A stretch of 48,950 nucleotides of DNA from Candidatus Omnitrophota bacterium (lineage in GTDB: Bacteria > Omnitrophota > Gorgyraeia > JAFGHF01): contig CP070837.1 of NCBI GenBank assembly GCA_020341815.1, positions 387,196 through 436,145 of the forward strand, given 5' to 3'. The translations under genes and the position numbers were made by a program. Positions 42,920-44,361 of this stretch are shown here, in pieces. Position 1 is the first letter of the stretch. Each line of letters opens with the position of its first letter. A model generated the notes under the pieces. That model had not been told where the DNA came from, searched no databases, and was given only the letters and a program-made list of their open reading frames with translations.

Positions 42920-44192
42920 AAGCCTGATTCCTACTTTAAAAGAGGCTCCGGCGGAGGCAGAGGCCATAAGCCACAAGCTGATGCTGCGCGCGGGGTTAAT
43001 TCGTAAACTCTCCTCGGGAGTTTATTCTTACCTTCCTTTGGGCTGGAAGGTCTTAAATAAGGTAGAGCAGATTATCCGTCAGGAGATGGACAAAAGCGGC
43101 GCCCAGGAATTACTTTTGCCTGCGCTTCAGCCGGCAAAATTATGGAAGGATTCGGGCAGATATAAGGAGATAGGCGAGGTAATGATTTCTTTTCGTAATC
43201 GCCGCGATAAGGAAATGACCTTGGGACCTACGCACGAGGAGGTAATTACCGAAATCGCCAAGGCCTACTTCAAGTCTTATCGGCAGCTGCCTCAGATCCT
43301 ATATCAGATTCAGACCAAATTCAGGGATGAGCCCCGGCCGCGCTTCGGGATATTGAGAAGTTGCGAGTTCATTATGAAAGATGCCTACAGCTTTGACAGG
43401 GACCGCCAGGGGTTGGATAAAAATTATCAGAAAATGTACGATGTTTATCATCAGATATTTGACCGTTTGGGATTAGACTTCCTGGCGGTTGAGGCAGACC
43501 CGGGAATTATGGGCGGGGATATTTCCCATGAGTTTATGCTGCCGGCAAAAGGAGGGGAAGACAATATTGCCAGATGTCCTTCGTGTTCCTGGGCCACCAG
43601 CCATCAGCTTCGCCGAGAGGCGAGCAATATTACCGAGCAGCTTAAAAGAAGTAAAGCCTGCCCTAAGTGCAAGGGGGAGCTCCAGATACAGACGGCAATC
43701 GAACTGGGACATATATTCAAATTAGGGACGAAATACAGCCAGACCCTGGGGGCGAAATTTTTAGATGAGGATGGTAAGGAAAAGCCCATTGTTATGGGTT
43801 GTTACGGGATTGGGGTTAACCGCATTGTAGCAGCGGCTATCGAAGAGAATCACGACAAAGACGGCATCATCTGGCCGGGTGAGCTAAGTCCTTATCAGGT
43901 CTTGGTTTTGCCCCTGAATATACAGGATAAAAAGTCGCGTGAAGTGGCTTTTAAGATTTACGGAGATCTTAAGAAAGACAATGTAGAGGTGCTTCTGGAT
44001 GAGCGCGATGAACGGGCCGGGATTAAGCTTAAAGATGCGGATTTGATCGGCCTGCCGGTTCAGATAATTATTGGGGAAAGAAACCTTCAGGAAGGCAAAA
44101 TCGAGATAAAAATAAGGAAGAAAGGCAAATCCGAGACAACAAAAAAAGATTTGACAAAATTTAGGGTTTGTAGTATATTGAATCTACTCTAA
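42906..44192 (+). CDS. proS: Prolyl-tRNA synthetase, bacterial-type core with the INS editing domain replaced by a short Cys4 segment
   Basis: FRDEPRPRFGILRSCEF (motif 2), GHIFKLGTKYS and GCYGIGVNR (motif 3), plus a C-terminal anticodon-binding domain. CPSC-x23-CPKC lies between SHEF and the GHIF block. 428 aa. Confidence 0.9.
   Translation: MLWSESLIPTLKEAPAEAEAISHKLMLRAGLIRKLSSGVYSYLPLGWKVLNKVEQIIRQEMDKSGAQELLLPALQPAKLWKDSGRYKEIGEVMISFRNRRDKEMTLGPTHEEVITEIAKAYFKSYRQLPQILYQIQTKFRDEPRPRFGILRSCEFIMKDAYSFDRDRQGLDKNYQKMYDVYHQIFDRLGLDFLAVEADPGIMGGDISHEFMLPAKGGEDNIARCPSCSWATSHQLRREASNITEQLKRSKACPKCKGELQIQTAIELGHIFKLGTKYSQTLGAKFLDEDGKEKPIVMGCYGIGVNRIVAAAIEENHDKDGIIWPGELSPYQVLVLPLNIQDKKSREVAFKIYGDLKKDNVEVLLDERDERAGIKLKDADLIGLPVQIIIGERNLQEGKIEIKIRKKGKSETTKKDLTKFRVCSILNLL
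44151..44179 (+). promoter_or_regulatory. Near-consensus sigma70-type promoter inside the 3' end of proS
   Basis: TTGACA (44151-44156), 17-nt spacer, TATATT (44174-44179). Confidence 0.55.
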
Positions 44193-44198
44193 ATCTTT

Positions 44199-44303
44199 AC
44201 CCCGTTACAAAATACCAACAAGGGTTGAGTTTAATAGCAAACAATGCCTGGTTGGTATAGTTTATAATTTAGCTATAAAGGTAGCAGTATTTTGGAACGG
44301 GGT
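44199..44303 (+). ncRNA. Candidate structured RNA (three-way junction): leader of rimP-nusA-infB or a stand-alone small RNA
   Basis: P1 44199-44215 / 44287-44303 (16 of 17 positions paired). P2 44215-44223 / 44247-44255. P3 44256-44260 / 44273-44277. Flanked by a promoter and a terminator. Confidence 0.4.
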
Positions 44304-44322
44304 TTATTGGAAAGGGGAGATT

Positions 44323-44356
44323 AGTGGGTAACGTAGCAAGAAGACCCACTTTTTTA
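44323..44356 (+). terminator. Intrinsic terminator or attenuator 6 nt upstream of the rimP start
   Basis: AGTGGGT (44323-44329), 14-nt loop, ACCCACT (44344-44350), then TTTTTAT. Confidence 0.7.
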
Positions 44357-44361
44357 TTATT

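Follow-up and report, generated by a model that had tools for sequence, protein, structure and literature searches.

A probable MITE-like insertion between the promoter and the attenuator of the rimP operon in a Candidatus Omnitrophota genome

We analysed the leader of the rimP-nusA-infB operon in a 48,950-nt stretch of a Candidatus Omnitrophota genome (the window; all coordinates given for it are positions in this stretch). An earlier note on this DNA had seen there a promoter, a three-way junction of helices P1, P2 and P3, and a terminator, and had proposed a riboswitch-like leader or a stand-alone small RNA (sRNA) of ~170 nt. We consider it highly probable that the supposed riboswitch is instead a polymorphic insertion of a miniature inverted-repeat transposable element (MITE), lying between a conserved promoter and an attenuator of the known rimP-leader kind. 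Its parts are all of ordinary kinds, and the module does not represent a new class of RNA. Four observations carry this reading: the insertion is present or absent between strains, its flanks follow a target rule, copies of the same family are dispersed over metagenome contigs, and the promoter and the attenuator stem are conserved. A false riboswitch or sRNA candidate is thereby removed, and the case shows how a MITE with a promoter on one side and an attenuator on the other can imitate an aptamer with its expression platform.

The proposed sequence of events is as follows. A sigma-70-type promoter at the end of proS would drive rimP-nusA-infB. The 105-nt MITE-like element would have inserted into a TTTA (T-NN-A) site about 13 nt into the leader, duplicating the central TT. 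Once the element is transcribed, its two 17-bp repeats, which begin ACCCCG, would pair to give P1, and P2 and P3 would be incidental folds of an interior that is not conserved. Transcripts would in part end at the U-run at 44350-44355, where NusA most likely raises termination, by analogy with other bacteria, giving negative feedback on the operon.

Filled and empty sites at the rimP leader

For comparison we use the 80 fetched rimP/nusA loci L001-L080, with tblastn matches to RimP and NusA, the loci L081-L094 with sibling copies of the element, the source sediment metagenome run (X1) and runs from two other metagenomes (X2 and X3). The closest genomes by NusA are L001, L002 and L003, also Candidatus Omnitrophota, with 78-79% identity; NusA identity is 49-61% in L004-L024. 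A look-up of the RimP sequence as an exact protein returns no record.

The 105-nt block is carried by X1. In X2 (a 53-kb contig) and X3 (a 502-nt contig), whose flanks are ~95% identical to the window, position 44195 is joined directly to 44303. This joint skips exactly 107 nt, which can be placed at 44196-44302 or at 44199-44305, and it keeps TTTA once with no extra letters. The block is absent from this site also in L001-L006. L001, L002 and L003 keep both the promoter and the downstream leader module without it, and the empty site of L001 reads aatcTTTTAgaaagg. Because X2, X3 and L001-L003 show the site precisely empty, we identify 44199-44303 as an insertion. The duplication at its borders is readable in two ways, either as a 2-bp TT within T-NN-A, for an element with the ends ACCCCG...CGGGGT, or as a 4-bp TTTA, for an element with the ends CCCCG...CGGGG. 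The block is small and non-coding (no open reading frame (ORF) of at least 40 aa starts inside it on the + strand), and it has terminal inverted repeats, a target duplication, dispersed copies and filled and empty alleles, the features by which a MITE is recognised.

An assembly artefact was considered as the source of the 107-nt skip and rejected: precise absence is seen in two independent runs, for three elements at their repeat boundaries, and in three metagenome-assembled genomes (MAGs).

Of the junction drawn in the earlier note, one helix stands. P1 pairs ACCCCGTTACAAAATAC (44199-44215) with GTATTTTGGAACGGGGT (44287-44303) exactly as proposed, in 16 Watson-Crick pairs and one A/G mismatch, with predicted pair probabilities of ~0.7-1.0. 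P2 contains an A/G mismatch that the earlier note does not mention and shares C44215 with P1; its predicted pair probabilities are at most 0.38, and those of P3 at most 0.06. The drawn combination of P1, P2 and P3 has a predicted energy of -25.9 kcal/mol, 10.7 worse than the minimum free energy (MFE) of the isolated 105-nt block (-36.6), whose fold has other internal hairpins in place of P2 and P3. The family copies, aligned in A3, point the same way. Pairing is kept in 99.2% of cells for P1, in 36.7% for P2 and in 45-63% for P3, where slid-partner controls give 33-50%, and RNAalifold on these copies returns P1 only. P2 and P3 are thus at background pairing and are not thermodynamically favoured.

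These results bear directly on the proposal that P1-P2-P3 is a ligand- or protein-sensing aptamer controlling the downstream terminator, which we now regard as extremely improbable. The order of promoter, structured block and terminator does look like a riboswitch, P1 is a stable helix, and shuffled sequences fold less well than the leader. However, the block is missing in ~95% identical strains and in the closest species, all of which keep the promoter and the terminator, so that P1-P3 as a set is not conserved at this site in relatives, an outcome that the earlier note had itself named as refuting its proposal. The interior is not conserved in 14 siblings either, another fold is favoured over the drawn junction, and copies of the block sit in unrelated gene contexts. 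Rfam adds nothing in favour of an aptamer: at the gathering score the whole 49-kb window has no match, to tRNA or any other family, and at E <= 10 the region 44050-44500 returns two noise matches only, ES036 and U6, leaving the spacer without a match to a known RNA family.

Other structured elements were tried for this block and set aside. The core motifs of the hammerhead, the twister and other small ribozymes were not seen by eye and have no Rfam match. For an integron attC site, the flank duplication and the T-NN-A rule do not fit. A permissive scan of the window for long-range stems gave too many chance matches to be informative.

The dispersed repeat family and its relatives in the window

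With the two-arm pattern ACCCCGTTNCAAAA-N60-90-TTTTGNAACGGGGT, we find 14 further copies in metagenome contigs, with the same terminal inverted repeats of 17-20 bp. They occupy ~10 distinct sites in unrelated gene contexts, for example between rplN and rplX, adjoining a GIY-YIG gene, and between comF-like and CNNM-like genes; a tblastx comparison of L081-L094 with the window and the nusA loci finds no shared genes. The terminal arms run on to 19-21 nt in most sibling copies. Only the arms are conserved. Interiors show essentially no relation to one another, with the exception of L094, the closest sibling. The 2-nt flanks are identical in 13 of the 15 copies that include the one in the window (binomial P ~6e-14), with T at -3 in all 15 and A at +3 in 14, which defines the T-NN-A target; its central bases vary (TT, GA, AC, TG, CA, AA and others). 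At arm position 9 (A3 columns 9/101; 44207/44295 in the window), A..T is found in 8 and C..G in 5 of the 13 other rows. The window copy is the sole A/G hybrid at this position, which accounts for the single mismatch of P1. Paired arm differences between sub-lineages are seen in columns 15-17 as well.

Searches for partial copies were negative. None of the fetched loci has an arm that stands alone or far from a partner, or a long element bounded by these repeats. Among viral contigs, a scan for one 44199-type arm gives one match with no partner arm, and a scan for TGAACCCCGCYCTTCC gives 13 matches with neither a partner arm nor an ATG context; we judge all of these to be chance. In the library of literature that we searched, we find neither the repeat sequence nor any link of Omnitrophica with MITEs, and the family appears to be undescribed.

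Three sibling copies share a further context. In L088 (5736-5838), L092 (6026-6130) and L082 (638-744), the element lies within cTTGAc, which resembles a -35 box, and a T-rich stretch follows. These may be orthologous sites, or they may reflect a target preference.

As to how such an element moves, we propose mobilisation in trans by a DDE-type transposase making a 2-bp (or 4-bp) staggered cut at T-NN-A. Conserved arms around a variable interior, paired arm changes and the lack of a transposase among our finds would suit a REPIN-like element, moved as single-stranded DNA by a RAYT enzyme of the IS200/IS605 type. Insertion of the IS200/IS605 type is not known to leave a duplication, whereas here the 2-nt flank duplication in 13/15 copies and the single TTTA at empty sites fit staggered-cut DDE transposition. 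Nor does a conserved tetranucleotide guide adjoin the arms. On this evidence a REPIN-like origin is improbable.

Two more elements in the window (Table 1), starting at 23125 and 39495, are homologous to each other and end in ACCCCG and CGGGGT. The pattern ACCCCG-N85-115-CGGGGT has 2 matches in the window against 0.07 expected. The earlier note had remarked that the helix ends in the rimP leader echo these two elements, and this was well seen: the three share their termini and flank signature, and each is an insertion. The element at 23125 is precisely absent in X2, with a joint from 23121 to 23251, and the one at 39495 is precisely absent in X2 and X3, with a joint from 39491 to 39603; each joint shares 4 letters. 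Since all three window insertions are absent from a ~95% identical strain, they were gained, or retained, in the window lineage after the split. In X1, word depth rises over the elements at 23125 and 39495 from ~13 to 50-280 and many contigs diverge exactly at the element ends, and we therefore conclude that there are numerous sibling copies of this type in that metagenome. At the trpS-scpA junction, L017 has an element of this type (8542-8700), and L019 has two in tandem (8601-8767).

This second type is found at start codons. The A|TGAA placement is seen in all five copies that we read (the two in the window, the one in L017 and the two in L019). Where the site is empty, in X2, the two downstream genes (kdsB and dxr by our reading) begin with an ATG that shares letters with the TGA before it (ATGA). 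Where the element is present, the start is a GTG that uses the last G of the element and is preceded by AAGGAAGGG, an element-borne sequence resembling a Shine-Dalgarno (SD) site, which pairs with the left arm CCCTTCC, itself similar to an anti-SD. The former SD and ATG are left at the head of a mini-ORF (MNPALPKH...), which extends through the left arm. This arrangement suggests translational coupling mediated by the hairpin, in which the arm hairpin would open when either the upstream gene or the remaining mini-ORF is translated, and expression of the downstream gene would be coupled to this. The branch that occupies start codons is the most interesting by-product of the analysis. One could go further and group all ACCCCG...CGGGGT elements into a so far undescribed superfamily of MITEs with T-NN-A targets, found in Omnitrophota and in other bacteria without cultured members. 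One of its branches (23125, 39495, L017, L019 and many copies in X1) would be specialised for A|TGAA starts in gene-dense operons, where it would couple translation by its hairpin, and the rimP-leader copy would belong to a sister branch and possibly tune the leader. We offer this wider scheme tentatively and think it possible but doubtful.

Several points weigh against the reading of the 105-nt block as a MITE inserted between a promoter and a rimP-leader attenuator. Among the sequences searched, we find no autonomous element or transposase bearing these repeats. Within X1, its own metagenome, no sibling of the window copy reaches 85% identity, and depth stays flat at 12.2. Two of the 15 copies have imperfect flanks. 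The paired arm changes could mean that selection acts on the hairpin and not solely on a site for the transposase. The leader from 44186 to 44361 has a predicted MFE of -51.6 kcal/mol, with z = -3.8 against shuffles, an unusually good fold, so that the inserted hairpin may have a secondary role. Lastly, the models of Rfam release 15 give no match to the leader hairpin, whether at the gathering score or at E <= 10; since the rimP model there derives from two-hairpin leaders of enterobacteria, this miss is a weak negative.

A further reading is co-option, in which the inserted hairpin would now alter leader stability or the set-point of attenuation, either by its stability at the 5' end or by offering a site to RNase III. 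In favour of this are its place in the transcribed leader, at about +13 to +118 from the presumed start, the length of P1 (a 17-bp helix), and the similarity of its ACCCC/GGGGU ends to the attenuator arms ACCCAC/GUGGGU. Yet the element is polymorphic among near-identical strains, and predicted folds keep P1 and the attenuator hairpin apart. We hold co-option to be unlikely, and an insertion flanked by the promoter and the attenuator remains our preferred reading.

Promoter, attenuator and neighbouring features

The promoter that the earlier note placed in the final codons of proS is there and is conserved in relatives. It matches 11 of 12 consensus positions. TTGACA-17-TA(G/T)nnT is aligned and conserved with unchanged spacing in six related Omnitrophota genomes, L001-L006, in the form TTGACA-17-TATAGT/TATATT in L001-L003, and both hexamers are retained in the X2 and X3 strains. 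Because L002 and L003 have no proS match upstream of rimP, the promoter and the leader belong to the rimP operon and not to proS. Transcription would start near 44186-44187, judging from the position of the hexamers. Among RNA runs, none contains this region.

Likewise, the terminator noted before rimP is present, with a U-run that ends 6 nt ahead of the rimP ATG, a start codon without an adjoining SD. Our terminator scanner missed this hairpin solely because its loop limit is 8 and the loop has 14 nt. The pattern GTGGG-N4-16-CCCACTTTT has 1 match in the window against 0.00 expected, and in 23 fetched loci it stands on the + strand immediately 5' of rimP (or of nusA, in loci that lack rimP); among them are Omnitrophota (L001-L006), Nitrospira, Planctomycetota/Phycisphaerae, Verrucomicrobiota and an Actinomycetota MAG. 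A looser hairpin scan finds AAGAGUGGG-loop-CCCACUCUU followed by a U-run in many Clostridia and other Bacillota. Synteny of proS and rimP is frequent among the Omnitrophota relatives, with spacers of 73 nt in L001 and ~95 nt in L005 and L006. The leader hairpin is absent from the Omnitrophota loci L007-L024, in which proS and rimP overlap or are at most ~28 nt apart.

Within the species of the window, the stem and the U-run are invariant among the window, X2 and X3, and all differences in the hairpin fall in its loop. L001-L003 carry the same module as the window, GAAAGGGGAGAT(G)AGTGGGT...ACCCACTTTTTT, and directly ahead of rimP this has the form GAAAGGGGAGATGAGTGGGT-loop-(A/G)CCCACTTTTTTT. 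Without the insertion, the leader is ~69 nt long and its MFE fold has no competing helix. Across L001-L080, the stem (A)AGAGUGGG / CCCACUCUU is kept in at least six phyla with loops that vary freely (for example L043 3399-3418, L038 3925-3944, L058 3883-3902, and also L074 and L076). A conserved stem with variable loops implies sequence-specific recognition. The assignment of 44323-44355 as a rimP-leader attenuator is supported by these sequence comparisons. It extends an attenuator with a GUGGG/CCCAC stem to Candidatus Omnitrophota, and the same stem is seen in several other phyla.

An sRNA gene of ~170 nt would take this promoter as its start and the terminator-like hairpin as its end, which do bracket a transcript of that length. 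In relatives, however, the same promoter and hairpin lie ~65-75 nt apart directly before rimP, and no other rimP promoter is present in L002 and L003. The hairpin is the known attenuator of the operon, and a terminated leader fragment would be a by-product of attenuation and not a gene. A stand-alone sRNA is therefore very improbable, and we retain the attenuated leader with an insertion in it.

Between the insertion and the hairpin lies a purine-rich box, GAAAGGGGAG, that resembles an SD. The conserved stretch to which it belongs is identical between the window and L001-L003 but for one G/T difference, and X2 and X3 are unchanged there from the window. If the hairpin forms, the box could act as a hairpin-bridged SD, ~6-7 nt from the rimP ATG when the helix is excluded. 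In L001 (3475-3496), L002 (148-169) and L003 (3488-3509) the box is followed by a mini-ORF of three codons, ATG AGT GGG TAA; the window, X2 and X3 have ATT in place of the ATG.

Table 1. Features of the rimP leader and related elements in the window
Feature	Positions	Strand	Basis and remarks
proS	42906-44192	+	ORF list
Sigma-70-type promoter of rimP-nusA-infB	44151-44179 (-35 TTGACA 44151-44156; 17-nt spacer; -10 TATATT 44174-44179)	+	Consensus match and conservation
proS-rimP spacer	169 nt, between 44192 and 44362	+	ORF list
Left flanking direct repeat TTTA	44196-44199		Four letters of the X2/X3 joint fit either side
MITE-like non-autonomous element	44199-44303 (105 nt)		Filled and empty alleles, family copies; terminal inverted repeats 44199-44215 and 44287-44303
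Right flanking direct repeat TTTA	44303-44306		Joint in X2/X3 and family flank rule
Purine-rich SD-like box GAAAGGGGAG	44310-44319 (conserved stretch 44310-44331)	+	Followed by ATT AGT GGG TAA, overlapping the 5' hairpin arm
rimP-leader attenuator	44323-44355	+	Stem AGUGGGU 44323-44329 / ACCCACU 44344-44350, 14-nt loop, U-run 44350-44355
rimP, first gene of the rimP-nusA-infB operon	44362-44811	+	ORF list; tblastn
nusA	44819-45973	+	ORF list
infB	45970-47973	+	ORF list
Related MITE-like element	23125-23251		ACCCCG/CGGGGT termini, TGAA/TGAA flanks; inserted in the start codon (ATGAA) of the gene that follows, read as kdsB
Second related MITE-like element	39495-39603		TGAA/TGAA flanks; inserted in the start codon (ATGAA) of the gene that follows, read as dxr

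Elsewhere in the window, we note a few features that touch neither the leader nor the elements. All long ORFs are on the + strand, many with 4-nt overlaps of the ATGA type, and GC skew is positive throughout (0.06-0.24). The X2 strain has 18,376 nt between the ispG region, where the alignment is lost after 42658, and the start of proS at 42906 that the window does not have. The difference at 42658-42906 reads as an indel or a rearrangement, and the identity between the window and X2 is lower, ~90%, over 40016-42658. At 32350-32440, in the 110-nt gap ahead of an ORF that starts at 32461, there is an imperfect palindrome of ~90 nt made of GTTCATAG-like units, with four direct copies in its left part and four inverted copies in its right part; an operator array and a large hairpin are both conceivable. 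The gap at 5117-5540 is unusually long (425 nt) and AT-rich, in a region with a GC content of 0.35 (4001-6000). It contains at 5329-5400 a short ORF that resembles the N-terminus of topoisomerase I and is ended by a stop codon, probably a gene remnant.

Comparison with known systems

The rimP-leader was described as a terminator with a conserved GGGc(...)gCCC stem, 4-130 nt from the gene, with no visible antiterminator or large aptamer and with NusA as the most likely protein effector (Naville & Gautheret 2010, Genome Biol 11:R97; PMC2965389). The hairpin in the window agrees with this family in its G-rich 5' arm, C-rich 3' arm, GGG...CCC core, U-run, distance of 6 nt from the gene and lack of an antiterminator or large aptamer. 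It differs in its closing pair, which is U-A (GGGU...ACCC) and not c-g, and in its long loop of 14 nt. The host, Candidatus Omnitrophota, lies outside the 2010 survey, and here a MITE is inserted upstream. In better studied operons, the NusA of B. subtilis autoregulates through NusA-stimulated termination in its leader, as PMC12288461 reports in citing Mondal et al. 2016, and E. coli has two terminators, t1 and t2, upstream of rimP (PMC6511841). As far as these accounts go, the leader in the window has the same operon, the same terminator position and a suboptimal hairpin of the NusA-assisted type, and NusA would act here by analogy. The suggestion in the earlier note that NusA autoregulation could explain the terminator matches the published rimP-leader family.

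Bacterial MITEs that are co-transcribed in operons include the Correia elements of Neisseria, the ERIC/IRU elements of enterobacteria and the RUP elements of pneumococci. The element in the rimP leader is like these in size (~100-150 nt), in its terminal inverted repeats and short target duplication and in having no ORF, as well as in its intergenic or leader location, its presence/absence polymorphism and the long hairpin that it would form when transcribed. Unlike them, it has the repeat ACCCCGTTACAAAAT..., a T-NN-A rather than a TA target, near-unrelated interiors between copies, and uncultured hosts, namely Omnitrophota and those of the unassigned metagenome contigs. Because copies are present or absent between ~95% identical strains, they could serve as a strain marker in uncultured genomes.

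The ends of the element invite one more comparison. When read as CCCCG...CGGGG, it has C-rich ends and a 4-bp T-N-N-A duplication, similar to piggyBac with its CCC.. ends and TTAA duplication; the difference is that the central two target bases are free in this family. IS1380 elements have CC ends and 4-5-bp duplications. The IS1380 transposases are the prokaryotic relatives of piggyBac (PMC10813416).

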